Of a stretch of DNA of 64,000 nucleotides, positions 19,539 through 61,940 are shown one piece after another. The DNA is from Pyrinomonadaceae bacterium. Lineage in GTDB: Bacteria > Acidobacteriota > Blastocatellia > Pyrinomonadales > Pyrinomonadaceae. The notes beneath the pieces were generated by a model. That model made no database searches and was not told the DNA's origin. It worked only from the letters and a program-made list of their open reading frames with translations. The stretch covers positions 3,288 through 67,287 of the forward strand of contig DATEIS010000441.1 in the NCBI GenBank assembly GCA_035278765.1, in the 5' to 3' direction. Position 1 is the stretch's first letter. Each line of letters opens with the position of its first letter. Both the position numbers and the translations under genes were made by a program.

Positions 19539-19550
19539 GAAAGATCGGAA

Positions 19551-46015: not shown

Positions 46016-46038
46016 GGGCCTTAAAGTTAGGGACAGTA

Positions 46039-46685: not shown

Positions 46686-46958
46686 TGGCGCGATTCCAAT
46701 GAAGCGCTTTGCGATAACATCACGAGAAAAAGATAGACGACTCGAGAGGACTCGATCATACCTGGGAATTCGGAGGGCCACACGGGTTTTAAAAAATGTC
46801 ACCGATTCGTCACTCGACTCTCTGCAAATCGATGAAAATCGATGTCAAAAGACTGCACAAGAAATGGTCCTGTAACGGCTGCAACCTGTTGAAGAATTGC
46901 AAGTTAATGTCACTGCATGTCACCGCATGACAAACCATGCAATGGTGGTCCAAGCCCA

Positions 46959-47003
46959 TTCGCAATGCGGAGGTCAGGGGTTCGATCCGCCTCTGCTCCA
47001 CCA
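46959..47003 (+). tRNA. 3' fragment of tRNA-Ala(CGC), from anticodon loop to CCA; not a functional tRNA
   Basis: TTCGCAA-TGCGG-AGGTC-AGGGG-TTCGATC-CGCCT-CTGCTCC-A-CCA. It has U at position 70, as in tRNA-Ala. The T stem has one mismatch. There is no D arm or 5' acceptor strand upstream. Confidence 0.6.
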
Positions 47004-47019
47004 TTTGTTTTCAATCATT

Positions 47020-47053
47020 TACGGCTGCTTGCACTGGCAGCCGTATTTCATTT
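47020..47053. terminator. Rho-independent terminator, possibly bidirectional
   Basis: 9-bp stem TACGGCTGC / GCAGCCGTA with an 8-nt loop, then TTTCATTT. It sits between the tRNA fragment and the convergent gene 47091..47642. Confidence 0.6.
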
Positions 47054-47090
47054 GTGGGCACGCTCTCCGACGCTAATCGACCCAGTATTA

Positions 47091-47642
47091 TCAATCCGAC
47101 TTCTTCAGATATTGCTCCGGAATCCGATTTTTCTCGTCTTCGTTTTGCCAAAACACTGTCACAACCCACCAACGCTTCCCATCGTTTATCAATTGAAAGC
47201 TGTTGATGCCTCGTTGGATGGGTATACGGTCTTCAGCGTTATGGCGTGATTCGTAGGAGCTAAAGGCCTGCGCGATATTTCCAAACGCCTCAGTCCGCCG
47301 TGCTACTTCCTTTTCGAAAAACCCTTTTTCTTCAAGCGACGGGCCAATTCTGCCGATGTACTCCTCAACCGTTACAACACGCCAGCCATAACCGTCCTCT
47401 TCCTGCGGTCGAGTTGGAATTAGACGAGCCTCAGGAACAAACAGGGACCGGAAACGATCCCAGTTGCGCTTGGTTCCAGCCGGCCCTGAAATTGTGTCGT
47501 AAACGGCCGCGATAATGGCATCCATCGAATTTACATCCGCGGGGTTGGCTTCCGGCGGTGCGGGCGTCTTGTTACAGGCAGGGAAAATAAAAACGAAAAG
47601 AAGAGAGACAAGAAGACTTCTACGAACCATGTGCAAATTCAT
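47091..47642 (-). CDS. putative lipoprotein, hypothetical (possibly NTF2-like fold)
   Basis: 183 aa. Signal peptide ending in FPAC, then a soluble domain. The fold assignment is a guess. Confidence 0.55.
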   Translation of the reverse strand: MNLHMVRRSLLVSLLFVFIFPACNKTPAPPEANPADVNSMDAIIAAVYDTISGPAGTKRNWDRFRSLFVPEARLIPTRPQEEDGYGWRVVTVEEYIGRIGPSLEEKGFFEKEVARRTEAFGNIAQAFSSYESRHNAEDRIPIQRGINSFQLINDGKRWWVVTVFWQNEDEKNRIPEQYLKKSD

Positions 47643-47828: not shown

Positions 47829-48193
47829 GTTCTATGTTGGAGGGGCGGATAGCTATAAACATCTGGCCGCGCCGCGGCCAATAATTCCACGAAACAAAAT
47901 CACTGTCTGAATCATTATTCAGTGAGACCCTGGTTCCATTAAATGAAAGCTCGCTTGAAGTTTCAGACAGCACACATGTCCTTCAAGCCGCAGCCGCACT
48001 TTCTCCGGCATTAGCCCAGAATCAGTTTTTAAATCACGAAATTCCAGGGCAAACAATTTGAACTACCCTGTGACTACCCTGGCTGGCCCACAAATATGTG
48101 CTGTTGAGCCAGGAAGAAGCCACGTGTTCCCCCCTCGTCTCGCAATAGCAGACGCCGACATCCGGCGTGGGAAGATGATTGGGTCGTTACAAG

Positions 48194-49276
48194 ATGGCTA
48201 TCGGACGGCAGGTTGATTCCGCCAAAAGGGAAAAGGCGTCCGTGCCCGATCGGGACCACAACGCAGTATTGCCCGCGCTGGAAGATGTGGGCGAGTTTGC
48301 TTTGCTCTCGATGATCGGCTCGTCGCCTATTTTTAACGAGACGGTGCGACGAATGGGCCGAATTGCGATGCGCGATGCGTCCGTATTGATTGAAGGCGAG
48401 ACAGGTTCCGGAAAGGAGGTGGCGGCGAGAGCGATTCACTACCTTGGTGCACGACGCAGCCGACCGTTCATTCCCGTGAACTGCGGCGCGATTCCCGATT
48501 CGCTAATCGAAGCCGAATTTTTCGGCCATGGCCGCGGCGCCTTTACGGATGCGCGCGAAGCGCGAGCTGGTCTCATTGCACAAGCGCACGGCGGCACCCT
48601 GTTCCTCGACGAAATCGACTCGCTAACTCCCAAGGCCCAAGTCTCATTATTACGATTCCTGCAAGATCAAAAATACAAACCCGTAGGCCGCGACGTCGAA
48701 CTGGAGGCAGACGTGCGCATCATTGCCGCTACCAACAGATCCCTCATCGCGCTCGCAAACAGCGACCGGTTCCGAACAGATCTTCTACACCGCCTCAGGA
48801 TTCTCTACTTGTACATTCCCCCGCTTCGCGAACGCGAAGGTGATGCCGAAATGCTGGCACAGCACTTTCTGCGGCATTACGTCAAAAAATACAATATGCC
48901 TCCCAAGCGATTCGCTCCGGAATCACTTCGCTGGATACGCCATCACCGATGGGAGGGAAACGTGCGCGAGTTGGACAACGCCGTCCATCGCGAAGTTGTG
49001 CTTGCGGATGGCGACGTGATCAGATTTGACGTCGTTAACAATGAGACAAAGCCCAGCCATCCAACAGTAGATTCCAGCGATGACAACTACGCTCCACTCG
49101 ATTTCCAGAGTGCCAAGGCGAAGGCAGTCCACGACTTCGAACGCGGTTACCTCACGCGAATTCTGCAAATTGCTCATGGCAATGTCAGCGCTGCTGCGCG
49201 CATCGCGGAAAAAGAACGGCGCGCGTTTGGCAAGCTCCTCAAGAAACACCAAATCAGCCGCGAGCAGTTCAAGTAA
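48194..49276 (+). CDS. sigma-54-dependent transcriptional activator (bEBP) lacking an N-terminal sensory/receiver domain
   Basis: Walker A GETGSGKE, Walker B TLFLDEID, GAFTDA (a GAFTGA variant) and a C-terminal Fis-type HTH (GNVSAAARIAEKERRAFGKLLKKH). Only about 45 residues precede the AAA+ core. Confidence 0.85.
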   Translation: MAIGRQVDSAKREKASVPDRDHNAVLPALEDVGEFALLSMIGSSPIFNETVRRMGRIAMRDASVLIEGETGSGKEVAARAIHYLGARRSRPFIPVNCGAIPDSLIEAEFFGHGRGAFTDAREARAGLIAQAHGGTLFLDEIDSLTPKAQVSLLRFLQDQKYKPVGRDVELEADVRIIAATNRSLIALANSDRFRTDLLHRLRILYLYIPPLREREGDAEMLAQHFLRHYVKKYNMPPKRFAPESLRWIRHHRWEGNVRELDNAVHREVVLADGDVIRFDVVNNETKPSHPTVDSSDDNYAPLDFQSAKAKAVHDFERGYLTRILQIAHGNVSAAARIAEKERRAFGKLLKKHQISREQFK

Positions 49277-49296
49277 ATCAAAAGAGTGGGTGACGA

Positions 49297-49662
49297 ATGA
49301 CCCACTCCCCTCCCGAATCCGATTCGCAACAAGTGAATTTCGGTTTTGGTACGTTTTGTGCTGCCTCGTTAGCACCAATCGCCGTGAGCAACGAAAACCG
49401 AATACAGATTGAACGTCTTGTTCTCCAGATCACTGAATACCTGGCTCGTAATCCAATGGCGGCTGATACGCTAGCCGGAATTCAGAGTTGGTGGTTATCA
49501 GGAGCAATGCGCAATGTTCATAGCACTCATGTTAAGACGGCGGTCCGCCTTCTCGTGCAGCGAAGAACGTTGCAGTGCAACATCCAGCCGGACGGTACGA
49601 AGACTTACTCACGTGCAAACAGTGGAATCTCCGCGCAGCGATCCGATCACGTCGGTGGGTAG
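49297..49662 (+). CDS. hypothetical 121-aa protein co-transcribed with the bEBP
   Basis: It starts 20 nt after the bEBP stop. It may be winged-helix-like (IERLVLQITEYLARNP...AVRLLVQRRTL). I recognise no family. Confidence 0.5.
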   Translation: MTHSPPESDSQQVNFGFGTFCAASLAPIAVSNENRIQIERLVLQITEYLARNPMAADTLAGIQSWWLSGAMRNVHSTHVKTAVRLLVQRRTLQCNIQPDGTKTYSRANSGISAQRSDHVGG

Positions 49663-49846
49663 ATTTCAACCCATGTATTAACTACCTGCTCCTCCTCGGA
49701 TCGCAGACGTTTCCGAAAGGGCAAGCGCTTTGAAGGTGCTAAACCGGGTCTTGCTTGACCCACTCTACTTCATCTGCCGGTCGTGCCACTCAAGCCTTTC
49801 GAACGTTTTGTTCACAAATTCTCCAACTTGATCGATGCGCGTGTAA

Positions 49847-49862
49847 TGGTACTGCGCTTGCT
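49847..49862 (+). promoter_or_regulatory. candidate sigma-54 promoter (P10) of the protease-bracketed operon
   Basis: aTGGTAC-tgcgc-TTGCt with exact spacing. The -12 element lies 22 nt upstream of ATG 49884, which implies a very short leader. Confidence 0.55.
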
Positions 49863-49883
49863 CGTGATGCGAAATCAATTGAT

Positions 49884-51206
49884 ATGAAACCCCACGTCAC
49901 ACTAACGTTGCGGACCCCGTTGCAACACATCGCGCTGCCTTATTGGGTTGATGCGATCACGCAAGCGCACTTGCGTCGCGAGCAATTTTTTCCAGCAGTC
50001 GATGCACTGTTCGCAAGACATAACCTTGCCTTCACGGCGACTCATGAGTACCGGCCGGCCGGATCGGTCTGGTCGCCGCAGGAAATTGCAAGCGGTTTCG
50101 ATCGCGTGTACCGGCTGGTGCTCCAATCAAATGTCAACGTTCCAACGGAGCTCATTGAATCCATCCGTCTCATCCCCGAGGTGGAACGCATTCGCGTAGG
50201 CGCGATCGCCGAGATGGATTTGCAACCGCGGTATGCCGAATCGCTGAGCGTGCGTACCGATCGCGCGTCACGCGACGCGATCTTTCTGGATGAGGCGCAT
50301 GCATTCAGCGAGGGCGACGAGGCCATCACGGTGGCAATCCTCGATACGGGTGTGGATTGCGATCATCCCGAATATAAAGACGCCCTGCTCCCGGGATACG
50401 ACTTCGTCGACATACTGGACGGCGCAACCGAATTCATCGGCGACTACGTCGGGGCCGACGCGATCCCGGAAGACGAAGTCGGTCACGGCACACATGTCGC
50501 CGGCATCGTCACGGGAAAAGGAAAGAACATGCCGCGCGGTGTTGCACCACGTTGCCGCGTTCTCCCGGTGCGTGTGCTGGCAGCGATGAACAAGGATGGT
50601 CGTAAAGTCGGCGCCGGTTCCGTAGAGAATATTAACAACGGCGTTAAGTGGGCCATCGACAACGGCGCAGACGTGATCAACATGTCACTCGGTGTACGCC
50701 ACACCGGCGGCGGTCTCCCGCATGAAGAAGTTATTCAGTACGCGCAGCGTAAAGGCGTGACGGTAGTCGCGGCGTCGGGAAATGACGGACGGCAGGAGAT
50801 GTATTACCCGGGCGCCTTTCCAAGTGTAATCGCGGTCGGCGCCGCCGATGACGCGGGTAATGTGGCCGACTTCTCGACGTTCGGCGATCAGGTTTCATTC
50901 ATTGCGCCGGGGGTGGACGTGTACAGCACTTCAATCGAAGACGGCTATGCGTTTTCCACGGGGACTTCTCACGCCGCGCCGTTCGTGACCGGCGCCGTTG
51001 CGTTGATGAAATCCTTTGCGCGGTCACAAGGTCACGAACTCAAGGATTATCAAGTCAAGCACGTGCTCAAACACACGGCCGACAAAGTGGATCGCAATTT
51101 CAAGGACCGTAAAGCGGGATATGGCCGGCTGAATGTCGCTGATGGTCTGCGTTACCTCGATTACAAGCTCAATTCGTCAAGGAGAAGATTCCATGGCTAC
51201 CAGTAG
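49884..51206 (+). CDS. S8 family serine peptidase (subtilase) without a recognisable signal peptide
   Basis: Asp (AILDTGVDCDHPEY), His (GHGTHVAGIV) and Ser (GTSHAAPFVTGA) in subtilase order. A non-hydrophobic N-terminal region of about 150 aa precedes them. The start was chosen downstream of P10. Confidence 0.85.
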   Translation: MKPHVTLTLRTPLQHIALPYWVDAITQAHLRREQFFPAVDALFARHNLAFTATHEYRPAGSVWSPQEIASGFDRVYRLVLQSNVNVPTELIESIRLIPEVERIRVGAIAEMDLQPRYAESLSVRTDRASRDAIFLDEAHAFSEGDEAITVAILDTGVDCDHPEYKDALLPGYDFVDILDGATEFIGDYVGADAIPEDEVGHGTHVAGIVTGKGKNMPRGVAPRCRVLPVRVLAAMNKDGRKVGAGSVENINNGVKWAIDNGADVINMSLGVRHTGGGLPHEEVIQYAQRKGVTVVAASGNDGRQEMYYPGAFPSVIAVGAADDAGNVADFSTFGDQVSFIAPGVDVYSTSIEDGYAFSTGTSHAAPFVTGAVALMKSFARSQGHELKDYQVKHVLKHTADKVDRNFKDRKAGYGRLNVADGLRYLDYKLNSSRRRFHGYQ

Positions 51207-51909
51207 AAAGCCTAACTCAAGTACGGCTGACAAAAAGAATCGCTACACCGATCTGCTGACTGATGTCCTTCCACCAAGTGTGGGAACGAGCGGTGTGGGA
51301 AAGAGCGGTCGGGAAACTCCTTCACGAAGACCGGTACTTCCTGTCGAAGTGATCGATTTTGATAACGAGAAACTCAAGGCCGGCTGGCGGAAGATCATCG
51401 ACAGTCAACGCAAAGACGTCGAAACGGACGTGCTTAAGATCTCACCGCCGCGCGCGAAACTCGATCCGATTGCGAAGACGGCGTTGGACAGCCTTCGAGC
51501 TAAGTTGAGCGACAGTTCCGCGACCGATGGATCGGATAAGGCATTGCGGCAAGACGTGGAAAAGTACGTGCGCGCGTTCATTACCAGAAAAGGTATTGCC
51601 AGCGAAGTCAAAAAAGTCACCGACCGCCTCAACGCACGCAGGATCACGGATGGCCGGCGTTGGGTACTCGCGTCAACCTACGAGTTCATCCTGGCAAAGT
51701 TGTTTCAGGATCGAGGCGATGAGTTGGAAGAGTTGATCAAAGACGATCTCGGTGTCGCCGAAAAAATTCTGCTCGAGCTGGAAGCTAAAGGCGGTCCACT
51801 CGATGTCTTCGTCAACCTGATCGTCAACTCAGTGATGAAGCGCAATCGCATCAACCCAAGCCACACGCTTCGCGAAATCGTGTCGCAGCAAGTCCGCGCT
51901 GCGATCTAA
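51193..51909 (+). CDS. hypothetical 238-aa protein (operon gene 2)
   Basis: AAGGAG RBS. It overlaps the S8 gene by 14 nt. Basic/disordered N-terminus and helical C-terminus. I recognise no family. Confidence 0.65.
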   Translation: MATSRKPNSSTADKKNRYTDLLTDVLPPSVGTSGVGKSGRETPSRRPVLPVEVIDFDNEKLKAGWRKIIDSQRKDVETDVLKISPPRAKLDPIAKTALDSLRAKLSDSSATDGSDKALRQDVEKYVRAFITRKGIASEVKKVTDRLNARRITDGRRWVLASTYEFILAKLFQDRGDELEELIKDDLGVAEKILLELEAKGGPLDVFVNLIVNSVMKRNRINPSHTLREIVSQQVRAAI

Positions 51910-51916
51910 TGGGGGA

Positions 51917-53143
51917 ATGACCATGATTAATGGAAACTCACGCACTGTATCCCTGGCTCCCGGCGGTCTCGAACCCGCCGTACTCCAGATCATCGACCGG
52001 GTCAATCAACAAGCACAGTTGCCGGTCTTCGTGGACATGTACATCCAAAACTCGGGGATTGCAGAAGACCGCTTTACCCCCGAGGTGCGCGCGGCAATGG
52101 TTGATTACCTCCGCGAACGCGGCGCCCAATTCGAAAGCATCGATGCAGTGCTTGAGCGGCAGTACGACGAGCTGTTTGCGCTGGCATACGAAAACGCCAT
52201 CACGCGCAAAGCCGGTCGCGACGATCCAATCGATGCCGCGCACCAACCTGGCGGCGGCGCGATCGGAGCGGGCTGGGACTTCAGTGTGGACCTGTTCGAC
52301 AACGTGGAGCAGCAGGGTGTTGTCCGCGACAATATTCTCGCCGCCGGCGCGATCGATTATATCTACGAGCTCGGCGAACACATGGGCGTGTTCCGCCTCG
52401 TGGACGCGTTGGTATTGAACTGGGCGAGTGGTTCGATCGACGTGGTCGAAGGCGATGTTGTTTCGCGCATGTACCGTTACTGGAAGCTGCGCGATCAACG
52501 CATGTCGTCCGAAGAGCGCGGCATGGTCTACCGCCGGGTGCTGAACAAAGGCGAGACCGACGTCCTCGATCGGATGGTCGTGAACGAGGAATGTCCGAAC
52601 CTGTGGCACAACCTCATGGCCGAGGTCGCCGACTACATCGACAAAACGGAACGGGTGAATTTAGGATCCGGCGAAAGTTCACCTGTCTCACGCGCGCGCA
52701 TTTTCCAGGCTGTGCGTGATTTGCAATACAACCTCACCGAATACTGCACCGGCATGGCCCACATCCAGGCGCGCGAGCTTTATGCGCAACTTCAGGAATG
52801 TGTCGAACTGCTGCGCGATCCGGATGTCCTCGCCTATTTCGGCGGCAACCGGCGCAAGAGTCTTTGGACTGTCATTGAGAAGATGTCGAAGCAGGAGTTT
52901 GGCGGCAGTCCGAACATCGCAGCGCTCCGCTCGCTCGCCGTTGATGGAAACACAATCTTTCGTTTTGTTGCCGACTTTACCGAAGGAGCGGTGAGGCAGG
53001 AAGACTTCGCTCGTTTCCTGGATGCAGCCGAGTCATACATCCTGAATTACTCGACAGTAGGCGGCGACATGTCGTCAATGGAAGAAGAAGAAGAGGACGA
53101 GAGCGCCGAACCGCTTGATGAGGAAGAGATGGATGAGTTCTAG
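51917..53143 (+). CDS. hypothetical 408-aa protein with poly-acidic C-terminal tail (operon gene 3)
   Basis: Long ORF ending in MSSMEEEEEDESAEPLDEEEMDEF. I recognise no family. The start may be ATG 51923. Confidence 0.7.
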   Translation: MTMINGNSRTVSLAPGGLEPAVLQIIDRVNQQAQLPVFVDMYIQNSGIAEDRFTPEVRAAMVDYLRERGAQFESIDAVLERQYDELFALAYENAITRKAGRDDPIDAAHQPGGGAIGAGWDFSVDLFDNVEQQGVVRDNILAAGAIDYIYELGEHMGVFRLVDALVLNWASGSIDVVEGDVVSRMYRYWKLRDQRMSSEERGMVYRRVLNKGETDVLDRMVVNEECPNLWHNLMAEVADYIDKTERVNLGSGESSPVSRARIFQAVRDLQYNLTEYCTGMAHIQARELYAQLQECVELLRDPDVLAYFGGNRRKSLWTVIEKMSKQEFGGSPNIAALRSLAVDGNTIFRFVADFTEGAVRQEDFARFLDAAESYILNYSTVGGDMSSMEEEEEDESAEPLDEEEMDEF

Positions 53144-53198
53144 GATCTTGTCTAATAACGAAAGCCAGCAGAAAAACAATTAGCACGGGAGTTCACCC

Positions 53199-54317
53199 AT
53201 GAGCGCATCGCAATCAATGAAGGATCTGGCCCGCAGCTACGCGCGCGACGAGTTAATGAACCTGCCGACTTTTCGGCAACTAGGCACCGACGATCAACGT
53301 GCGCTTTATCGCGATGTTTACCATCGCCACGTCAATCGGCTGAGCCAACCAAGGACCACGGCACGGGCATTCGCGGACCCCAAGACTGCGGGTGAAATGA
53401 TCAATGACTCGCGTCACCTCAACCAACGCATCGATCAGGCCGGTGAGTTGGCCGGCGGCTTTGTTGACGAAGTCGATTTTCCCGGGTTCGTAAAAGATCT
53501 ATTGAAAGGCGTGTTCGACGCGAACCTGAAGGTTACTCTCGATCAGATGGAGGCGTACCAAAAACTGTTGAAGGCGGCGACGCAATCCCTGACCGCATTC
53601 ATGAGCAAGATCAAGCCCGAAGCTGCGTTTGGCTATTTAGCCGATAACAACAGTGACGAGTTTGGCTTGTCGTTTAGCGACGACGAAAGCGACGCCGAGG
53701 GCAATAAGAAAGTCCTCCTCACGGACAAGGAAGGCAACGCCGTCGATACCGAGGATTCGCGTATCAAGTCGCGCATCATGGATGCGACCTTGCAGATGGC
53801 CCGCGAACAACGAGCGATGTTGCGCGAAACCATTCTAATGGGCATCACGCGGCTCGTCGTAGAAAAAGGAAACGTCAAAGCCTCGGTATTGTTCGACATT
53901 AAAGCGAGCGAGCAAGTCGCAAAGAGTGACAAGGCCGCGCTCTCAGAACAGGTTTCCAAGAGCAGGAGCATCACCGCCAGCGGCGGGTTCCTGGGCTCGA
54001 TCTTTGGCGGCCCGTCCGGTGGCACGACGAGCAGCGAGCGCAAAACGAAGCTCAGTGTCTCGTCGGCCAAGAGTGTCGCAAACACGGAATTAGCCGCCAA
54101 GATCACGGGCTCCGTGGACATCACGTTCAAGTCCGATTATTTCAAACTTGATAATTTTGCGGCGATGTATGGACCACTGGGTGGCGCCGGTGGTCCGGCG
54201 CCGACAGCAGCAGCACCGGGTGGCGCTCCGGTCATGGCACCGGGAGGCGCGCCGGTTATGGCTCCAGGAGCAGCGCCGGCTGTTTCCGCGGCCCCGGGGT
54301 CGGTTGGTCCGCGGTGA
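53199..54317 (+). CDS. hypothetical 372-aa protein with Gly/Ala/Pro-rich repeat tail (operon gene 4)
   Basis: GGGAG RBS. I recognise no family. The C-terminus is GGAGGPAPTAAAPGGAPVMAPGGAPVMAPGAAPAVSAAPG. Confidence 0.7.
   Translation: MSASQSMKDLARSYARDELMNLPTFRQLGTDDQRALYRDVYHRHVNRLSQPRTTARAFADPKTAGEMINDSRHLNQRIDQAGELAGGFVDEVDFPGFVKDLLKGVFDANLKVTLDQMEAYQKLLKAATQSLTAFMSKIKPEAAFGYLADNNSDEFGLSFSDDESDAEGNKKVLLTDKEGNAVDTEDSRIKSRIMDATLQMAREQRAMLRETILMGITRLVVEKGNVKASVLFDIKASEQVAKSDKAALSEQVSKSRSITASGGFLGSIFGGPSGGTTSSERKTKLSVSSAKSVANTELAAKITGSVDITFKSDYFKLDNFAAMYGPLGGAGGPAPTAAAPGGAPVMAPGGAPVMAPGAAPAVSAAPGSVGPR
54216..54287 (+). repeat. in-frame 24-nt tandem repeat (2 good units plus 1 degenerate) encoding PGGAPVMA
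   Basis: ccgggtggcgctccggtcatggca / ccgggaggcgcgccggttatggct / ccaggagcagcgccggctgtttcc. Confidence 0.8.
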
Positions 54318-54326
54318 TGAAACTCG

Positions 54327-56528
54327 ATGGCACTCGCGCTGCTTTGGGCTGAAACGCTGGAAGACGACGTATCCGCGTCACGGCTGCGCTTCGACATTGG
54401 TCACAATCATTACTACGCATGGCAACTAGGAGATCAAGAGCGGATCAATACCAACGGCATAGCGCGGCTGGCCAACGTCAAACAACGCTCGCGCATGTTT
54501 GGGCCATTGCCGGAGAGTGCACGTGGCCGCGGCGTCCTGGAAATCCAGACCGAACTGATGTCGAAAGAAGATCGGTTCGTGCAGTTGATAAGTTTTCGGA
54601 CCGAGGACGGCGCCGGTCCGGCCATCTCGCCGATAGTCGAGCTGGATTGGACCAACGCGCGGCGTCGCGAACGGTTGCCCCTCATGGACACCCTTCCGCC
54701 ACCCGCGCTATTCGCAACAGCAGGTAGCGCTACCTGGTCACCGCAGGTGTTGGCCAGCGCCCTAAGTAATGGGGATGGAGGCTTCACAGTGGCTTTAGCA
54801 CAAACGTATTCATCCACGCCGGCGCGAATACAGCCGGTGGACGCGGCGCCTTTACGCTGGCGCGAACGCAACCTGAGCCAGGGAATGTTTTTTGGAGGAC
54901 TGCTTTCGTCGCTCGCGCCCGTGATTGGCAATGTGTTAACCAGCGCCGCTCCGGCGATTGGTCAATTTATTGGCGGGTTGTTGCCGGGTGCACCGGGTGG
55001 CGGCGCAGCAGGCGCGACCGGTGGCGCGAGCACGAGTGGGACTACCGCTAATCCACAGCTCACTCAATTAATCCAACAGTTGGTGCGCAGCATTGGTGGC
55101 GCTGTCGCTCCTGCGGCGCCGGCGACTCCTCCCGCAAGCACGACACCGGCCGCACCGGCCACTGCGCATTCGATGGCCTTCGGTTCCCTCGGCGCGCGTG
55201 TCGCGCGACAGGCGCCTCCCAGATATTCCTTTTCGCACTCAGCCAGAAAGCGCGCGCGGCGTAACCCGCGCGTCGTGCAATACGCGCAGGCACAAGAGTA
55301 CAGCCAGGCGATGATTGCGCCCGCGCTCCTCGCTGCCCTGCCCGCATTGATGCCGGTGTTACAACAAGTATTGTCTCCGCAAACTATTCAAACCGTCGTC
55401 GATGCGCCGCAAAGAGCCACCGGTCAGATCATCAACGGCCTGCTCGATTTCGCTCGAATCGGTATGCAGGCCCACGAACAAGAACGTGCACATCTGCGTC
55501 AACTTAATCCCGGCGTTGATGATCCCGCGCTCCACCAGTTGTTGATGAGCATGAGTCAGGGTCTCGCGGCAGCGCAGCGCTTGAACTACCGTCGCGTGGC
55601 GAGTGTGAAACTGAGTTTTGACGAAGCGCAGAGCCAGATGCTGTTCGGCCGCTCGCGCGTGTTGTATCGCCGGGACCGGGCACTGCAATTTCCCCTGAGC
55701 GTGATCACGCCGAAGACGATTTCTGCCGCTCGCCTGGTGTTGCAAATTAAACATCCGGACACCCTGGCGGTGCTGGTCGAGGACGGCGAAGATGTCGGCG
55801 AACTGTCCAGTGGTCCAATTCCGCTGGTGCCGCGCATTGATGAAGCAATGGTTGCGCGTCTCGAGCCGAACCAGGATTACATCGTGATGGCAACGCTGCT
55901 GTGGAAGAATAAGAAGAAGCAGCAGGTCGGCACTTCGATGCAACAGCGCATTACCTTGATCGGCGAGTATTCGTTTGATCGGGTGGAAGAAGGCGGCGAG
56001 CAGGTTGCAACTTCAGACTTCGAACAATATCGCGACTTGTGGCACAAAGTCTGGGAGGGTGAGTTCGGGACCGGTGCGCACGCGGCGCGTCTCGACTGCC
56101 GTTACTATCTCGTACTTAACCCGAAACGCACCAACAACGCCCGCCTCGATACGCATGTCAAATCAGACAACGGCAAACTTGGCGGCAAACTGAAGACGGG
56201 AATGGAATACAGCCCGTACGTACTCAACCATTTGCTCACTCGCCTCACGCCGGAATCCACGTCACTCAGCGACTCGGAAATTGAAGCCTTAAGCGGCAAC
56301 GACTTTATCGAGCGTTTCAATCAGGCGGCTCAATTCAGCGGCAAGTTAAAAGGCCGGCGTGGCGAAAGCGGCGCGTTGTGGGTGTATCCCGAGTTCAAGA
56401 TCCAGACTCTCGTGTTGACCCGAGCGGAAGACGTAGACGAGAACGGCAACGTGCGCACGCTTAACGAAACACGAGTCCGTTTTCCGATGCCCGTGATGAT
56501 GCACTTCGTAGGAGTAAAAGGCGCATGA
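54327..56528 (+). CDS. hypothetical 733-aa protein with central glycine-zipper and Ala/Pro/Thr-rich linker (operon gene 5)
   Basis: Long ORF. Contains GMFFGGLLSSLAPVIGNVLTSAAPAIGQFIGGLLPG followed by about 60 low-complexity residues. I recognise no family. Confidence 0.7.
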   Translation: MALALLWAETLEDDVSASRLRFDIGHNHYYAWQLGDQERINTNGIARLANVKQRSRMFGPLPESARGRGVLEIQTELMSKEDRFVQLISFRTEDGAGPAISPIVELDWTNARRRERLPLMDTLPPPALFATAGSATWSPQVLASALSNGDGGFTVALAQTYSSTPARIQPVDAAPLRWRERNLSQGMFFGGLLSSLAPVIGNVLTSAAPAIGQFIGGLLPGAPGGGAAGATGGASTSGTTANPQLTQLIQQLVRSIGGAVAPAAPATPPASTTPAAPATAHSMAFGSLGARVARQAPPRYSFSHSARKRARRNPRVVQYAQAQEYSQAMIAPALLAALPALMPVLQQVLSPQTIQTVVDAPQRATGQIINGLLDFARIGMQAHEQERAHLRQLNPGVDDPALHQLLMSMSQGLAAAQRLNYRRVASVKLSFDEAQSQMLFGRSRVLYRRDRALQFPLSVITPKTISAARLVLQIKHPDTLAVLVEDGEDVGELSSGPIPLVPRIDEAMVARLEPNQDYIVMATLLWKNKKKQQVGTSMQQRITLIGEYSFDRVEEGGEQVATSDFEQYRDLWHKVWEGEFGTGAHAARLDCRYYLVLNPKRTNNARLDTHVKSDNGKLGGKLKTGMEYSPYVLNHLLTRLTPESTSLSDSEIEALSGNDFIERFNQAAQFSGKLKGRRGESGALWVYPEFKIQTLVLTRAEDVDENGNVRTLNETRVRFPMPVMMHFVGVKGA

Positions 56529-56707
56529 ACCCGAAACGAAAACAGCTTGGCTGGGCGCAAGAGACCGATGTCATTCCAAAACTTGAAGGGATGGAGATCG
56601 AGTTTGACGAAAAGGTGACATTGTTTCCAGTGGACCTGGAAGAAATTCGCGATGTCGTACCGAAGAGATCCTCGGTTGCGGCCCGCAATGGCAGGGCGAC
56701 GCATTGA
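56525..56707 (+). CDS. hypothetical 60-aa protein (operon gene 6)
   Basis: ATGA start/stop overlap with gene 5; the stop lies 1 nt before the next ATG. Confidence 0.45.
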   Translation: MNPKRKQLGWAQETDVIPKLEGMEIEFDEKVTLFPVDLEEIRDVVPKRSSVAARNGRATH

Positions 56708-56708
56708 G

Positions 56709-57020
56709 ATGAATGAACCTGCGCCGTACGAGATCAATCCCGCGGATCGTCTCCCGGCGCTCGCTGAATTTCTCGCTGACCTGGCGGGCGCGGCGAATGT
56801 CGATCCGGATTTTGCAGGAGCGGAAACGCTTTCGATCAGTGAGATCAAAATCGACCTGCCGATTGAACTGAATTTGTTAGAGGAGTCGGGTGCGTGGCAG
56901 CTCGATGCGGCGCCACCCACGCAGAAAATTGAAACGTCGATAATGCCGGTTTGGCATCGAGTACGACTCAGAGTGACGGTACACAATGGCGAACGCAATC
57001 TCGAACCCGTGGAACCTTGA
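56709..57020 (+). CDS. hypothetical 103-aa protein, Trypco2-like layout (operon gene 7)
   Basis: Internal ATG of ORF 56652..57020. Helix, then alternating-hydrophobic strands (ISEIKIDLPIELNL ... HRVRLRVTV). The family guess is from memory. Confidence 0.5.
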   Translation: MNEPAPYEINPADRLPALAEFLADLAGAANVDPDFAGAETLSISEIKIDLPIELNLLEESGAWQLDAAPPTQKIETSIMPVWHRVRLRVTVHNGERNLEPVEP

Positions 57021-57756
57021 GAACTTTATCGATTCGCTCATCCTGGAACTCGATAAGGCACAGGACACGCTCGCGATGAAAGGTCTTACACGCAAAATGA
57101 CGTACGCCGTTAAAGACGTGGGGTTCGACCTGCATCTCTTTCCCAGTTATGAAAACGGCAAACTGAAATTTCAAATGGCGAAGCCGGGCGATCAGGGCGG
57201 TTCGCGCATCTCGTTTCAGCTCGGATCGATTACCGACCGCCAGATTCGAGAATCCGGGAATGAACCGCTATCGCGCGATGACATCAGTATCGACAACCTG
57301 GAAGGCATGGACGACGAGGTGAAAGATTCGCTACGCAAAGTCGGAGTGCACTCGACGCGTGATTTGGAAAGGATGGACCAACGCAACGTTAACGTCGAGA
57401 AAATTGTGGAGAACAAAACGCAAGGCAAGAAGAAACTCGACTACAGCGACCTCGCCAATATGATTAACAAGGCGAAGCGTCGCAAGTTCGCGCCCCAGTT
57501 GTCGGCCGCGCAGGGAATGTCCGGTGCGGAAGGGATCGAACTAACGTTGCGCGGGCACAATTTTGTGCTGCCCGGCAATGATGACACTCGTTTTCCAATC
57601 GCGCTTCTCAATGGCGAGTCGGTCCAGGTCGTGGCCGCGACGCACGACACATTACGCCTCAAGGCGCCGCCGCATTATCTCAAGCCCGGCGCCAATCAAT
57701 TGTCGATCGCACTCGATCCTTACGCTGTGGTGAACATGGAGATCAAACAACCATGA
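56986..57756 (+). CDS. hypothetical 256-aa protein: Trypco2-like N-terminus plus IPT/TIG-like C-terminal beta domain (operon gene 8)
   Basis: It overlaps gene 7 by 35 nt. N-terminus: LENFIDSLILELDKAQ...MTYAVKDVGFDLHLF...SRISFQLGSI. C-terminus: IELTLRGHNF...ATHDTLRLKAPP. Confidence 0.6.
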   Translation: MANAISNPWNLENFIDSLILELDKAQDTLAMKGLTRKMTYAVKDVGFDLHLFPSYENGKLKFQMAKPGDQGGSRISFQLGSITDRQIRESGNEPLSRDDISIDNLEGMDDEVKDSLRKVGVHSTRDLERMDQRNVNVEKIVENKTQGKKKLDYSDLANMINKAKRRKFAPQLSAAQGMSGAEGIELTLRGHNFVLPGNDDTRFPIALLNGESVQVVAATHDTLRLKAPPHYLKPGANQLSIALDPYAVVNMEIKQP

Positions 57757-58865
57757 GCGCACGGTCATCCCGGTTACATGCATTGGAACGGGGCCTTAAA
57801 TCGCCGCGTAAGTCACGGGCGAAGGCGCGTGGGTTAAGCGTGATGCGGTTGGAAAGCGGCGCCGCCCCCGTACAATCCGGCGACACACGGCCGGCGCGTT
57901 TGCCCAAAGACATGGAGGATCAAATCGCAATCGTACGCGGTCACGCTGTTGGCAAACCGTCGCGCGGATTACTCGAGCTTGAACAACGGTTGCTACAACC
58001 GCGTGATGCTGGTCCAACCTCGCCGGCGATTCAGCGCCACGATCATAGCGCCACACCGGTCTCCGCCGCTCCGCTGTCGCAGGCACGTGCGCTGTCGGCG
58101 CAGATTGCATCGAGGGAGTTTGGTGGACACTACAACGTGGAGTCGTTTGAAGACACCTCTACAATAACGGCTCCGAGAGTGCCCACGTCCACACCCGAAT
58201 ACAAAGCAGGCACGACACCGGGCACGATCTCCACACCGACAGTGCCTACGGTTCCACCACCCGGAGTTACGCCTTGCGCTGAACCGCATGCCACGATTTC
58301 CCCGAGGGCAGTTCCGGAAACACCGGAACGGACCCGACGAACCTCGCTGGATTCCGATCAGGAAGCCGTTGCCGCTAACTTCGAGCGCGACATTAGTGCG
58401 ATGCTGGGTACGCCGTCCCCGGTGAGCCCACCAGAAAATCAACAATGGGACGACGCGGTGCGCAATGCGACAACCGCACCAACTGCGACACCTGTAACTC
58501 CCGCGATCGCCACGCCGCAACCCGCCGTGGCGCCGAAGCAAGACCAACACGAAGTGTTCAATCAGATGGGCCTGGCGATGAACTATGCGAACAGCTTCGA
58601 CCTCGGCACCATGGATATCTCCGCGCGTTTCGATCGTTTCGACGAGGAACTTGCGCTGGCGCCCAGCCCTACGATGCCAACGTCCGCCGCGTTATCGTCG
58701 CCCCCCCTTCACACTTCAGTGCAAGCTCTAGCGCTGGATGACTTTGATCTCGTAGAGGATTTGGCTGAAATCAGTGCTGCGCAGCCATGCCCTATTAAAG
58801 AAGACACGCCCGCAGCAATTCCGACCCCTGCTAGCCCAGTTACAACCGAGAGGACGCAATCATGA
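57753..58865 (+). CDS. hypothetical 370-aa Pro/Thr/Ala-rich, probably disordered protein (operon gene 9)
   Basis: ATGA overlap at both ends. Compositionally biased throughout, with an acidic amphipathic segment LALDDFDLVEDLAEI near the C-terminus. Confidence 0.6.
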   Translation: MSARSSRLHALERGLKSPRKSRAKARGLSVMRLESGAAPVQSGDTRPARLPKDMEDQIAIVRGHAVGKPSRGLLELEQRLLQPRDAGPTSPAIQRHDHSATPVSAAPLSQARALSAQIASREFGGHYNVESFEDTSTITAPRVPTSTPEYKAGTTPGTISTPTVPTVPPPGVTPCAEPHATISPRAVPETPERTRRTSLDSDQEAVAANFERDISAMLGTPSPVSPPENQQWDDAVRNATTAPTATPVTPAIATPQPAVAPKQDQHEVFNQMGLAMNYANSFDLGTMDISARFDRFDEELALAPSPTMPTSAALSSPPLHTSVQALALDDFDLVEDLAEISAAQPCPIKEDTPAAIPTPASPVTTERTQS

Positions 58866-60697
58866 CAAACCGCCTCGTTGATCTTGAATCCACCATCACT
58901 CGCTCTCACAAAACGAAAGCCGCACACCGGAACGGCAGACGCCCGCCGGTTGCGCGTAAACCGCAAGGCGTGCTGACGCGGGTCGCTACCATGCCACCGC
59001 CGGCGGCACCCTCGCTTTCACCGGCGCCCGCGGTAGCGAAAGGATTGAGTGCGTTGGTTAGCCGGTGGCCGGCGCGTGCTGCTAGCAAAGCCCATGCGTT
59101 CGGAGCGGTCGACTATACGGTTCCGGGACTCTTCAGCCCGCTGGCCCAACCACACTCCATGGCGTGTTGGGCCACCGTCTTTACGATGATGTGGTCATGG
59201 CGCCGGCAGCAATCTTTGGACATCGAGACTTCGCTCGCTGCCCTGGGGCAAAGATGGCTGGATATGTATCGCGCCGATACTGGTTTGCCTGCTGAAGCCA
59301 CAGCGGAGTTCATGACCGCCGCCGGATTGGTGGCTGAACCACCGCGAAGTTATTCGGTTGAGGGATGGGAACAACTGCTGCGCAACTACGGACCAGTGTG
59401 GGTCACGACCGATGAATTGCCGGGCAAGGGTTGGGCCATCCATGCGCGGGTGATCACGGCCATCTCAGGTGACGGCACGGCGGATAACACCTTCTTTACT
59501 ATTGTCGACCCAAATGGCGGACGCACGTATCGAGAATCGATCGCGGTGTTTATACCGAAGTACCAGGAGGAAGTAATTCAATCAGGCTACATGCGCATTC
59601 AGGTGGTCCATTGGACCGCGGATGCGCGAGCAGAAGTACGGGCGCAATCGTTCGGAGGTCGCACGACGCGCGCTTCAGCCGTTCGGGCGAGTTCATTATC
59701 GGCGCCTGGCTCGGCGCCCAGTGTGGCATTCGATTACTCCCAGGCGCTGGCTGCGCATCGCCAGGCGTTGGCGCTAAGCCAGTCGTTCGATGTTCGATAC
59801 AACGTGGAGCTGATTCCGCAGCAAACAGGTTTTTCCTGTTGGGCCGCAGGTTTCGCCATGATTGTCGGTTGGCGTGACCAGGTTAGCATCAACCCTTCGG
59901 AAATCGCGCGCGCCACGGGCTACTGGGCACAATACCAGAGCGGCTTGCATCCCGAGGATACTAGAGTCATGAGCACCTGGGGGTTCGTCGCTGAGCCACC
60001 TCAATCGTACATGATCGAGGCGTTCGTGGATTTGTTGCGGCGTTTCGGACCACTATGGATTGCCAGTGCAGAGCCGGGTCCACACATTCGGGTGATCACG
60101 GGAATTCATGGCGATGGCACTCCGGACGGAACCATACTGCATATCAATGATCCGTGGGAACAGGGCATGACCGTGTTCAACCCCAACAACCGCGGCTCGC
60201 AGTACACCGAGACCTTTACGCAATTCGAGGAGAAACAGGCCACGTTGGTGGGCCAGGAAAGGTCTATCAGAGCACCAATCTACATCGCTCATCTTCCGCA
60301 ACTGCCTGATTGGATGAACACACCCACGGCGCAGAGTTTTTCGCACTACATTGGCCGCCCGCTGGCAATGGAAGCGCCAAGCAATCCGGCGAACTATCGA
60401 CTGCTGACGTCGGGTATCTGGAGCAGTAATACGATGTTAACGGTCCAGGGTGGTCAGGGCATGTGGTTCAAAATTCGTAACACTAACGTGTTGGGCACAA
60501 CCATTCGAATCACAGATCAGGCGAGACAAACCAAGCAATCGATAATTTTGCCGGCGTCGAGTGTGGAATTCTTGTTCGCGATCTTTGGCAACGAACCGAT
60601 GGGGTGGCGCTTTGATATCAGCACAGAGAGCGATGCCTTCATGGTGACGTGGGAGTTGTGGAGCACGTGGGTGCCAGGCATGCCGCCGAACAGATAA
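58862..60697 (+). CDS. tandem papain-like cysteine peptidase (Peptidase_C70 / AvrRpt2-like, C39-like fold) with C-terminal beta-rich domain (operon gene 10)
   Basis: Two repeats, each with Cys (HSMACWATV; TGFSCWAAG), His (WAIHARVIT; GPHIRVITG) and Asp (TIVDPNGG; HINDPWEQG). No signal peptide. Confidence 0.65.
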   Translation: MTNRLVDLESTITRSHKTKAAHRNGRRPPVARKPQGVLTRVATMPPPAAPSLSPAPAVAKGLSALVSRWPARAASKAHAFGAVDYTVPGLFSPLAQPHSMACWATVFTMMWSWRRQQSLDIETSLAALGQRWLDMYRADTGLPAEATAEFMTAAGLVAEPPRSYSVEGWEQLLRNYGPVWVTTDELPGKGWAIHARVITAISGDGTADNTFFTIVDPNGGRTYRESIAVFIPKYQEEVIQSGYMRIQVVHWTADARAEVRAQSFGGRTTRASAVRASSLSAPGSAPSVAFDYSQALAAHRQALALSQSFDVRYNVELIPQQTGFSCWAAGFAMIVGWRDQVSINPSEIARATGYWAQYQSGLHPEDTRVMSTWGFVAEPPQSYMIEAFVDLLRRFGPLWIASAEPGPHIRVITGIHGDGTPDGTILHINDPWEQGMTVFNPNNRGSQYTETFTQFEEKQATLVGQERSIRAPIYIAHLPQLPDWMNTPTAQSFSHYIGRPLAMEAPSNPANYRLLTSGIWSSNTMLTVQGGQGMWFKIRNTNVLGTTIRITDQARQTKQSIILPASSVEFLFAIFGNEPMGWRFDISTESDAFMVTWELWSTWVPGMPPNR

Positions 60698-60773
60698 GTG
60701 TGGGGTCGGTCTGAGGTGTCCTAAAAATTAACGGACGACTCCATCACCTCTGGCGTGCCATCGTAGTGCGAGC

Positions 60774-61295
60774 ATGACGATGAGCGGGAACACGAAACCG
60801 GATCTTAAGGAATTTCTTTTAGCTGATTATCAGTTAAAGGCCAGGTATCTGACTGACCACTTTTCACGAATGTGGACTCGGTTTAACTTCTTCTTGACAA
60901 TAGAATCAGCTCTGCTGGGCATTTCGTTTCACAAAGACTATTCGACGCATTCTGTGTTCATCTCTTTGACAGGATTGGCGTTGAGTGTTGCCTGGTATTA
61001 TTTTGGCATCACAGATAATTACCTTGTCGATGTGTATAGAAAGCAAACCGGGCAAGTATATTATTTGCTCATGAGAATTGCGGAGCCTTCTCTGCCAGGC
61101 ATTACGACTGAGGATCAATTTAGAGTGTTCTCGTATGTAGGTGATGTCAAGAATCAGTATTTCGACTGCGATGAAAAGATAAAAGACATCAAGCGGAATT
61201 TTTTTCAGACAAGGTATGAAAAGTTTAGCGTTACAGAACTTGCTGTAGCGTTTCCTGTGATTTTCTTAATTATTTGGCTAGTCAGAATTAGTTGA
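60774..61295 (+). CDS. small 3-TM membrane protein, hypothetical (SLATT-like architecture?)
   Basis: 173 aa, low-GC gene. N-terminal helix, two adjacent TMs (FNFFLTIESALLGISF; VFISLTGLALSVAWYYFGI), a soluble spacer and a C-terminal TM. Confidence 0.55.
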   Translation: MTMSGNTKPDLKEFLLADYQLKARYLTDHFSRMWTRFNFFLTIESALLGISFHKDYSTHSVFISLTGLALSVAWYYFGITDNYLVDVYRKQTGQVYYLLMRIAEPSLPGITTEDQFRVFSYVGDVKNQYFDCDEKIKDIKRNFFQTRYEKFSVTELAVAFPVIFLIIWLVRIS

Positions 61296-61523: not shown

Positions 61524-61940
61524 ATGGACAATGGAAACATGAAATTAAATCGCGAAGTTGTTTTCAATGAGCTTAGCCACCGTCGTACTAAAATTTGGAA
61601 CATCTTTTCTTGGAGCAGCGGAATACTTATTGCAATTACAGGCGGCGTGATAGCTCTCAAGACAGACAATCCTCCAGCGGAGCTATCAAAACTCAGCAAT
61701 ATTATTCTAACTCTAGCTGTGGCAGTCCTCTGCACGTGTGCTTACCTATGGATAGAGCAAAATATGGTTATTGAGAGAAACGCTGAAGAGTTATTGAATG
61801 ATTTTGATAAGAAGTTAGAACTAAAGATTCCACGTGGACCATTTTACTTTGGATATAGACCTGCACTTATTGTTCTTACGCTTGCTGCTTTTGCTGCCAT
61901 CTGGGGGGATAAAATATTGGCAGGCCTAACAGTTCGCTGA
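61524..61940 (+). CDS. small 3-TM membrane protein, hypothetical (same architecture as 60774..61295)
   Basis: 138 aa. TMs: IFSWSSGILIAITGGVIAL, IILTLAVAVLCTCAYLWI and a C-terminal ALIVLTLAAFAAIWG. Confidence 0.5.
   Translation: MDNGNMKLNREVVFNELSHRRTKIWNIFSWSSGILIAITGGVIALKTDNPPAELSKLSNIILTLAVAVLCTCAYLWIEQNMVIERNAEELLNDFDKKLELKIPRGPFYFGYRPALIVLTLAAFAAIWGDKILAGLTVR

Follow-up and report, generated by a model that had tools for sequence, protein, structure and literature searches.

Comparison with described systems

The closest described counterparts of the system reported here are modules in which a protease is encoded with a protein of the Pepco group. Pepco is the combined name of Trypco1 and Trypco2 (Kaur et al. 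2020, PMC7159879; Evans et al. 2025, bioRxiv 10.1101/2025.11.14.688446), and these proteins form a pre-assembled beta-barrel of 9-10 subunits that becomes a lethal pore once the partner protease has cut after a conserved isoleucine (bioRxiv 10.1101/2025.11.14.688446). We describe here a gene cassette from a Pyrinomonadaceae (Acidobacteriota) metagenome-assembled genome (MAG), in which its genes are annotated as hypothetical. The cassette occupies positions 47978-60709 (+ strand, 12.7 kb; delimited by blastn against a second locus and by a GC step) of a window of 64,000 nucleotides (nt), which is the whole stretch of DNA that was analysed, and comprises a sigma-54 activator, a small open reading frame (ORF) and an operon of ten genes. 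As in the Pepco-protease modules (PMC7159879; 10.1101/2025.11.14.688446), a protease is encoded together with a candidate Trypco2-superfamily module that ends in a conserved isoleucine, and the logic would be that of a latent effector licensed through proteolysis. In the described modules, however, the protease is of the trypsin or caspase type and is fused to STAND/Avs, whereas the S8 protease of the cassette is sensor-free; the cassette further adds five conserved orphan proteins, an adaptor, polymorphic enzymatic effectors and sigma-54 control.

Polymorphic toxin systems (Zhang et al. 2012, PMC3482391) resemble the cassette by their swappable toxin domains (C70, Ntox11, patatin, amidases and papain-like peptidases) placed behind a conserved trafficking region, by the presence of several cassettes per locus and by their horizontal spread. 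Unlike them, the cassette has no signal peptide and no part of the two-partner secretion, PAAR/VgrG, WXG/LXG or Photorhabdus virulence cassette (PVC) types; its trafficking signal would be a new short N-terminal helix together with a motif of the adaptor g370, and no immunity genes are adjacent. With the type VI secretion system (T6SS) and the extracellular contractile injection systems (eCIS)/PVC, the cassette shares N-terminal loading signals on the payloads, variable fibre-like binding proteins and effectors with Ntox11 and C70 domains, whereas no sheath, tube, baseplate, spike or AAA+ part of such machines was detected with Pfam, NCBIfam and PHROGs or by Foldseek of the proteins g408 and g372.

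Peptidoglycan hydrolases devoid of a signal peptide reach the wall only via a regulated membrane lesion, as in the holin-endolysin lysis cassettes of phages and in type 10 secretion, where release depends on a holin and a muramidase. The peptidoglycan hydrolases of the cassette are signal-less too, but no holin-type transmembrane protein is encoded, the lesion would be formed by a soluble beta-barrel or hairpin protein that the protease licenses, and the cassette is not phage-borne. Bacterial gasdermins are latent pore formers cleaved by a neighbouring protease, sometimes a subtilase; the cassette differs from the gasdermin-protease pairs by the absence of a gasdermin domain (Pfam) and by a much larger gene set. 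The activator can be compared to PspF and HrpR/HrpS, as it displays an AAA+ sigma-54 domain without sensor; its gene lies beside the operon that it would control and beside a small conserved ORF whose product could act in trans. PspA holds PspF and HrpV holds HrpS, whereas neither a PspA nor a HrpV homologue is present in the cassette.

No description of this operon was found in the literature, and the system appears to be new. It belongs neither to the contractile injection systems nor to the type VII secretion systems (T7SS), nor to the defence systems listed in PADLOC. At the level of sequence comparison, no described counterpart was found for the families g408, g372, g733 and g122, nor for the two cargo motifs presented below.

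Conservation and spread of the cassette

Genomes scanned with the alignment of g408 yielded 80 loci, and all the proteins of the window were searched with tblastn against 82 loci. A single collinear order is observed over these 82 loci: S8, (g238), g408, g372, g733, (g60), g122, g256, g370, (C70), where parentheses denote the genes of variable slots. Many of the loci lie on truncated contigs and the counts per gene are minimum values: g408 is present in 82 of the 82 loci, g372 in 79, S8 in 74, g733 in 71, g256 in 62, g122 in 59, g370 in 44, C70 in 31, g238 in 19, the activator in 19 and g60 in 10. The conserved core is composed of the S8 protease, g408, g372, g733, g122 and g256. To this core are added, as shown by the sequence comparison, the adaptor g370 and three variable slots, A, B and C. 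The first-pass annotation, made from the sequence of the window alone, had viewed the operon as a candidate undescribed system and had proposed a neighbourhood comparison. The genes are indeed collinear and co-conserved over the 82 loci and no profile or fold search puts the core into a known machine, in agreement with that view and with the lack of a published description.

The loci originate from about ten phyla (the taxa include Gamma- and Alphaproteobacteria, Cyanobacteria, Gemmatimonadota, Planctomycetota, Bacteroidota, Desulfobacterota, Deinococcota, Acidobacteriota, Eisenbacteria and, with a single locus, Actinomycetota), and many of the host genomes are those of filamentous cyanobacteria. 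Complete copies are found in the cultivable Hahella chejuensis KCTC 2396, Calothrix, Tolypothrix and Sphingomonas naasensis. In a second Pyrinomonadaceae MAG (locus L003), the DNA is 89.5% identical over exactly 47978-60709 and both flanks are unrelated (blastn); the block from the activator to C70 is therefore a discrete transferable unit. Other copies are carried by mobilizable plasmids of about 194 kb in Tolypothrix and Microchaete. The locus had previously been interpreted as accessory DNA on the basis of its flanks; the sharing of the cassette alone with L003 and the plasmid copies are stronger arguments for the same conclusion. A phage origin was considered and rejected, since neither phage GenBank nor IMG/VR contains a match. 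The genome of Adonisia turfae CCMR0081 carries the system twice, as distinct copies on one scaffold (L063 and L069). On a plasmid of Tolypothrix sp. PCC 7712 (NZ_CP063787.1, locus L084), an IS701 transposase (19125-20435) lies right after the g256 homologue, at the effector slot, and this copy has probably lost its slot-C effectors.

Organisation of the operon

The ten genes of the operon are all on the + strand. The S8 protease gene (49884-51206) overlaps by 14 nt with g238 (51193-51909), which is followed after 7 nt by g408 (51917-53143). A gap of 55 nt, the largest in the array, separates g408 from g372 (53199-54317), which lies 9 nt before g733 (54327-56528). ATGA overlaps link g733 to g60 (56525-56707), g256 (56986-57756) to g370 (57753-58865), and g370 to the C70 gene (58862-60697). 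Between them, g122 (56709-57020) starts 1 nt after g60 and codes for 103 amino acids (aa) from this start, or overlaps g60 if the alternative start at 56652 is used; it overlaps g256 by 35 nt. This tight packing, already described in the first-pass annotation, agrees with the ORF listing and the translations. The eight middle genes had been considered unnameable, and they match no model of Pfam, NCBIfam, PADLOC or PHROGs. By hydropathy, no signal peptide, as previously noted by eye for the N-termini, and no classical transmembrane segment was found in the products of the cassette. The only hydrophobic stretches among the operon products are two segments of g733, at residues 186-205 and 326-349. 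Counts of internal promoters and terminators in the cassette are at chance level and such elements were not retained.

The S8 protease and the Trypco2/Pepco-like protein g256

The subtilisin-like serine protease matches Peptidase_S8 (PF00082) with an E value of 5.9e-54 and has all the motifs of the catalytic triad (DTGVD, HGTHVAG and GTSHAAP). Among the NCBIfam models, that of the T7SS mycosin (TIGR03921) comes closest, with a score of 201.7 bits below the cut-off of 278.75. An assignment as T7SS mycosin was rejected on this score, the absence of a transmembrane segment and the absence of Ecc genes. PADLOC-DB 2.0 gave only generic matches for the window genes, namely the AAA-HTH part of RtcR/PspF models for the activator and "subtilase" for the S8 protease.

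The protein g256 is composed of a Trypco2/Pepco-like module (residues 1-95), a helix-hairpin-helix (HhH) domain similar to DUF4332, a basic patch and an IPT/TIG domain. Residues 1-100 were searched with phmmer against 1.84 billion representatives and recovered 163 cluster representatives. Among the second-tier hits (n=84), Trypco2 (PF19631) is detected in 10 proteins (best E value 2.3e-6), TIG in 14 and DUF4332 in 6. The N-terminal module of g256 and the second-tier module are aligned by hhalign with a probability of 99.8% (E value 3e-30), and the g256 homologue of Burkholderia matches Trypco2 weakly (E value 0.0098). By such transitive homology, the N-terminal module of g256 can be tied to the Trypco2/Pepco superfamily. 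The motif LGSI..QI is invariant at residues 79-87, and Ile82 and Ile87 close the module. In contrast to the stand-alone small proteins of about 117 aa, g256 has 256 aa and the protease of the operon is not adjacent to it. Two Trypco2-like modules had initially been proposed in the operon. The one of g256 is retained, transitively, for residues 1-95, and the one of g122 is not: hhalign gives 20.8% and 2% for g122, and no Pfam domain is present in any of 101 g122 homologues. The hypothesis that g122 and g256 are paralogues was also rejected (1-2% with hhalign).

Core proteins without known relatives

PDB profile searches with the alignments of g408, g372, g256, g733 and g122 gave nothing below an E value of 0.4. 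Placement of the core in a known machine, which the first-pass annotation had named as evidence against a new system, is provided by none of the profile or fold searches.

The most conserved core protein is g408, with more than 304 homologues that are 40-99% identical across phyla, a mean column identity of 46% across phyla and no Pfam domain in any homologue. The AlphaFold2 model (mean predicted local distance difference test score, pLDDT, of 76.9) is all-alpha with 17 helices. The best Foldseek hits have E values of 1.0 in the PDB and 0.45 in BFVD; a relationship with YaxA/XaxA was rejected, the resemblance being weak (TM-score about 0.1). An exact sequence look-up returned no record. The protein also has a conserved loop predicted to be disordered and an acidic tail closing in an invariant Phe. 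This poly-acidic tail with its terminal Phe is reminiscent of the docking tails of the SSB type. In most phyla, g408 possesses an additional N-terminal part of 150-280 aa equivalent to g238.

For g372, 696 homologues were obtained, all unnamed and without Pfam domain, with a mean column identity of 55%. Its AlphaFold2 model (pLDDT 59.5) displays N-terminal helices and, over residues 225-309, long beta-hairpins with a Gly-rich hydrophobic tip. Foldseek against the PDB gave only non-significant matches (E value of at least 0.1), to FliF rings and to the pore stems of PA, CDTb, lysenin and aerolysin. In the g372 family, the Pro/Ala tail nearly always terminates in Arg or Lys. From their sequences, the C-termini of g408 and g372 look like terminal recognition elements.

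The alignment of g733 orthologues, with the motif YSxAxxAPALLAALPALMPLLQxVL, reveals a beta-rich N-domain, a variable Gly/Ala/Pro linker containing two conserved hydrophobic motifs, and a C-domain that is conserved and beta-rich; neither the PDB nor Pfam gave a match. Its MALA start (54327-54338) is invariant in 35 orthologues from many phyla, which suggests a structural or processing role of the extreme N-terminus. The last of these orphans, g122, is a small core protein of about 100 aa with an N-terminal LPxLA helix, two strongly amphipathic beta-strands (16 beta-amphipathic windows vs a shuffle mean of 1.4) and the alignment motif MPxEL...GSxPTQxTETTIxPVFHRLxL.

Variable slots, effectors and cargo motifs

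Slot A is occupied in the window by g238, a helical and charged protein assigned by its position and by tblastn. It is detectable in 19 of the 82 loci and is fused to the N-terminus of g408 in two of them (L019 and L025). In other phyla, this slot contains PG_binding_1, SBBP beta-propeller, Laminin_G_3, lectin and coiled-coil proteins. Slot B encodes in cyanobacteria proteins of 300-1180 aa, one of them with an Ntox11 domain, which share the C-terminal consensus EPILLNGMKVIFDQxVxVYPVxLExK. The protein g60 is a minimal slot-B protein that consists of the motif LEGMEIEFDEKVTLFPVDLEE alone, and its residues 20-39 match the C-terminus of the slot-B gene of Tolypothrix. Two other slot-B proteins (L041, 14659-15999; L072, 9383-10807) carry the N-terminal sequence VFTVFFCGTGSN, which we take to recall the alpha/beta-hydrolase motif of the DUF2235/Tle1 type; no Pfam match is found at an E value of at most 0.001.

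The content of slot C was determined with Pfam on 94 ORFs located downstream of g256 in 50 loci. Peptidase_C70 is the most frequent domain (24 ORFs), followed by PG_binding_1 (5 ORFs), Peptidase_C92 and OmpA (4 ORFs each), Amidase_2 and Extensin-like_C (2 ORFs each), and by Ntox11, patatin, calpain, CAP, GH19 and Laminin_G_3 (1 ORF each). Up to three effectors are present per locus. The slot-C protein of the window is a tandem C70 peptidase of the papain-like AvrRpt2 type, which matches Peptidase_C70 (PF12385) in two stretches (E value 6.8e-89) with the Cys, His and Asp motifs kept in both copies. Both peptidases of the operon had thus been correctly recognised at first reading, where they were described as a bracket around the middle genes. 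Of this bracket only the S8 side stands (core, 74 of 82 loci); C70 (31 of 82 loci) is swappable cargo of a polymorphic slot, in which many other effectors can take its place. The first-pass annotation had also seen a cytoplasmic proteolytic machine. This picture is incomplete: effector and accessory domains of the system are directed to the envelope (PG_binding_1, OmpA, Amidase_2/3, muramidase, M15 and GH19) and point to the cell wall and periplasm, and one core protein, g256, can be tied to a superfamily of pore formers.

Nearly all slot-C proteins start with the sequence M-x(1-10)-N-R-L-x-x-L-E-x-x-L. The strict form NRLxxLExxL is present in 44 of 129 slot ORFs vs 3 of 2673 other ORFs of the same loci. 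In the window, the motif corresponds to SRLHALERGL in g370 and to NRLVDLESTI in the C70 protein. The Pro/Thr-rich protein g370, a putative adaptor or effector-carrier, contains after a Pro-rich linker the central motif HxxFxQMGxxMxYANSFDLGxxxLxxRFDxFDxxL, obtained from the alignment of 44 loci. Elsewhere g370 runs on into a toxin domain, Ntox11 in Calothrix and C70 in two other loci (L020 and L061). No recurrent immunity-like family was detected downstream of the effectors among 208 ORFs (70-320 aa, within 3.2 kb) of 50 loci and the window.

Type II loci

Four loci contain the same families in a permuted order and are referred to as type II: L083 (Burkholderia pyrrocinia NZ_CP091309.1, 393570-418259) and three MAG loci (L085, L086 and L087). 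The Burkholderia pyrrocinia copy provides a complete type II variant in a cultivable organism. Each type II locus has 3-4 g372-like and two g408-like genes, as well as g122-like, g256-like, S8 and activator genes, and pairs its activator with a sigma-54 promoter; the activator of L086 is longer (471 aa). The effectors are giant proteins with the architectures Amidase_2+C92+C70 and Amidase_3+Muramidase+Peptidase_M15_3. The type II loci show that the deep core consists of S8, g408, g372, g122 and g256, and that an attack on the cell wall is the recurrent output. In type II loci, a DUF3467 protein is encoded after the activator, and the genes downstream of the Burkholderia locus code for a 1151-aa cyclase-domain protein and a patatin.

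Sigma-54 activator, promoter and small ORF

The activator, a bacterial enhancer-binding protein (48194-49276) with a layout similar to PspF and HrpS, matches Sigma54_activat at residues 40-204 (E value 2.7e-59) and AAA_lid_14 (1.2e-20) in Pfam. The Sigma54_activat match begins at residue 40 and the protein is therefore devoid of a sensor domain, as the first-pass annotation had stated. Its loop, which reads GAFTDA, is of the GAFTGA type, and the C-terminal HTH_8 (E value 0.032; 14.4 bits) is below the cut-off of 22.

The promoter assigned to the ten-gene operon, TGGTACTGCGCTTGCT (49847-49862; -24 TGGTAC and -12 TTGCT), has one mismatch to TGGCAC-N5-TTGCW. Matches to the -24/-12 consensus across the window are no commoner than in shuffled sequences, and this match alone is not significant. 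The comparison of loci is more informative: among the 19 loci with an activator (all with the activator upstream of S8 by tblastn), 18 have a GG-N10-GC element upstream of S8, vs 4 of 55 loci without activator, and two of these four are Hahella loci with good matches. In Gammaproteobacteria and Acidobacteriota the element lies at -37 to -128 before S8, whereas its position in Gemmatimonadota is about -320. In the cyanobacterial and other loci, both the activator and the sigma-54 promoter are absent. The promoter proposed from the window is supported by this split, and the proposed control by sigma-54 applies to Gammaproteobacteria, Gemmatimonadota, Acidobacteriota and type II loci, but not to the cyanobacterial and other loci. 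From these sequence patterns, sigma-54 control appears to be real yet lineage-specific.

Between the activator and the promoter lies the small ORF s121 (49297-49662), without family match in Pfam and NCBIfam. It is conserved in L003, L004, L005, L014 and the type II locus L086 (31% identity, E value 3e-8), but the alignment with these homologues starts only at about residue 19-45. A weaker -24/-12-like element, TGGTACGTTTTGTGCT (49347-49362, two mismatches to the consensus), ends 22 nt before a GTG at 49384, which would start the conserved part of s121, and in L086 the s121-like ORF sits 3' of the sigma-54 promoter. The true start of s121 may be this GTG; the protein would then be shorter than 121 aa, and its gene may itself be sigma-54-driven. 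Conjecturally, s121 is possibly a partner or regulator of the activator.

Proposed mechanism and alternative explanations

The explanation that we favour, with a confidence that falls somewhat short of even, is that the cassette, once licensed by its protease, would breach the envelope and set effectors free, in an altruistic, lysis-type release of toxins. In favour of it are the collinearity and mobility of the cassette, the co-occurrence of the activator and the sigma-54 element, the tie of g256 to Pepco with its invariant Ile82 and Ile87, the amphipathic strands of g122, the predicted hairpins of g372, the motif-tagged polymorphic effectors, the binding modules of slot A and the lack of signal peptides, transmembrane segments and recurrent downstream immunity-like genes. 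Judging from the sequence and comparative data, the sensor-less activator would switch on the sigma-54 promoter upon a signal, and all the products, being devoid of signal peptides, would build up in the cytoplasm. The S8 protease would act on the Pepco-like module of g256, possibly with a cut after the invariant Ile87 as in Pepco, and may also cut g122, g372 or the pro-regions of effectors. Cleavage would license a membrane-perforating assembly with the beta-hairpins of g372 and the hydrophobic segments of g733. The papain-like and peptidoglycan-degrading effectors, recruited through their motifs, would reach the cell wall through this lesion; the envelope of the producer would then be breached and the effectors and binding modules freed to act on neighbouring cells. 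A delivery directed to siblings is disfavoured by the absence of immunity genes. In our opinion, released wall hydrolases could hit monoderm competitors without harming kin, the hosts being nearly all diderms.

Several points weigh against this lytic release. The roles of g408 and g733, the largest and most conserved orphans, are left unexplained, which is a weak point of every model, and six highly conserved core proteins are more than a simple lysis device would require. AvrRpt2 itself cleaves a plant protein and not peptidoglycan. Neither the g256 of the window nor 35 orthologues has a direct Pfam match to Trypco2, and g256 carries a 160-aa HhH-TIG extension absent from Pepco. The confidence of the g372 model is low, and none of its fold matches reaches significance. 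Finally, sigma-54 control is absent in most lineages. With a more tentative degree of belief, we suggest that the core, here taken with the adaptor (S8, g408, g372, g733, g122, g256 and g370), may be a new class of machine for toxin loading and delivery or release. Its folds would be unrelated to those of the numbered secretion systems or of phage-derived injectors, and it would have its own cargo signals (N-terminal NRLxxLExxL and C-terminal NGMKVIFD..PV.LE) and its own targeting proteins, and would have spread horizontally through about ten diderm phyla.

The presence of a core Trypco2/Pepco homologue in a protease-bearing operon also fits an anti-phage abortive infection, since such modules act in defence. 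An infection cue would activate the S8 protease, and Pepco-like pores and wall hydrolases would kill the infected producer only. The lack of immunity genes, the patchy distribution shaped by horizontal transfer and the large cyclase and patatin genes after the Burkholderia locus are consistent with this explanation, as are the many filamentous cyanobacteria among the hosts, which are also hosts of the conflict systems of PMC7159879. However, no STAND, Avs or other sensor NTPase is encoded, the PADLOC matches are generic (activator and subtilase), the known neighbour genes are not defence genes, and expression is not constitutive but gated by a sigma-54 activator. The lectin, PG-binding and coiled-coil proteins of slot A suit extracellular binding better than cytoplasmic sensing, and arrays of up to three effectors per locus resemble weapon arsenals. 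Abortive infection is thus regarded as rather unlikely. The slot-A binding modules would also fit a non-lytic, dedicated secretion or delivery nanomachine, an analogue of T6SS, eCIS or T7SS made of unrelated parts, with terminal loading signals and targeting by slot A. The polymorphic effectors with common targeting motifs, the link of Ntox11 elsewhere to PVC/eCIS payloads, a C70-domain protein known as a T6SS effector (PMC7991086), and the extreme conservation of the structural proteins, typical of self-assembling machines, argue for it. The nearest model of the S8 protease is the T7SS mycosin, but its score is below the cut-off. No ATPase or other energy source, no integral-membrane or outer-membrane component and no signal peptide is found, nor any sheath, tube, baseplate or Ecc part by Pfam, PHROGs and fold search, and immunity genes are again absent; we hold such a nanomachine to be unlikely.

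Programmed autolysis or wall remodelling in the course of the producer's own development (necridium-type death, release of biofilm matrix or of extracellular DNA), without any external target, would explain effector and accessory domains aimed at peptidoglycan, transcriptional control, abundance in filamentous cyanobacteria and the absence of immunity genes. A developmental function nevertheless fits poorly with a mobile, plasmid-borne and patchy rather than lineage-stable distribution; Ntox11, patatin, C70, calpain and lectin-type modules would be odd for housekeeping remodelling, and effector polymorphism points to conflict. This explanation is considered very improbable.

If confirmed, the cassette would add a widespread multi-protein system of the conflict or secretion type to the bacterial repertoire and would bring at least four new families of proteins (g408, g372, g733 and g122). 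The two new cargo motifs could be used for finding effectors or for loading heterologous cargo, and g256 would represent a new context of Trypco2/Pepco, outside STAND/Avs defence. The system would also account for hundreds of operons of "hypothetical proteins" in cyanobacteria, Gemmatimonadota, Proteobacteria, Planctomycetota and Acidobacteriota.

Boundaries and neighbouring genes

The GC content is about 0.52-0.62 inside the cassette (about 57%), 0.49-0.52 upstream and 0.43-0.48 downstream; the low-GC patch reported from 60.7 kb onward in the first-pass annotation is real (43-48% vs about 57% in the cassette). The tRNA fragment reported at 46-47 kb is not: ARAGORN and Rfam gave no match. No flanking or terminal repeats and no tRNA were found at the edges of the cassette, and a tRNA or attachment-site scar was rejected in the absence of a tRNA, an Rfam match and flanking repeats.

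Downstream of the cassette, two paralogous membrane proteins of the 8xMP family (PF24838) are encoded at 60774-61295 and 61524-61940, in a patch of 43-46% GC. A role as immunity proteins or as members of the system was rejected: both genes are outside the conserved block and have no counterpart beside the cassette in 82 related loci. They are probably unrelated neighbours. Upstream, the region 46000-47100 contains no long ORF and shows a weak GDSL-lipase-like fragment at 46158-46508 (E value 0.0013); it is possibly a decayed gene.

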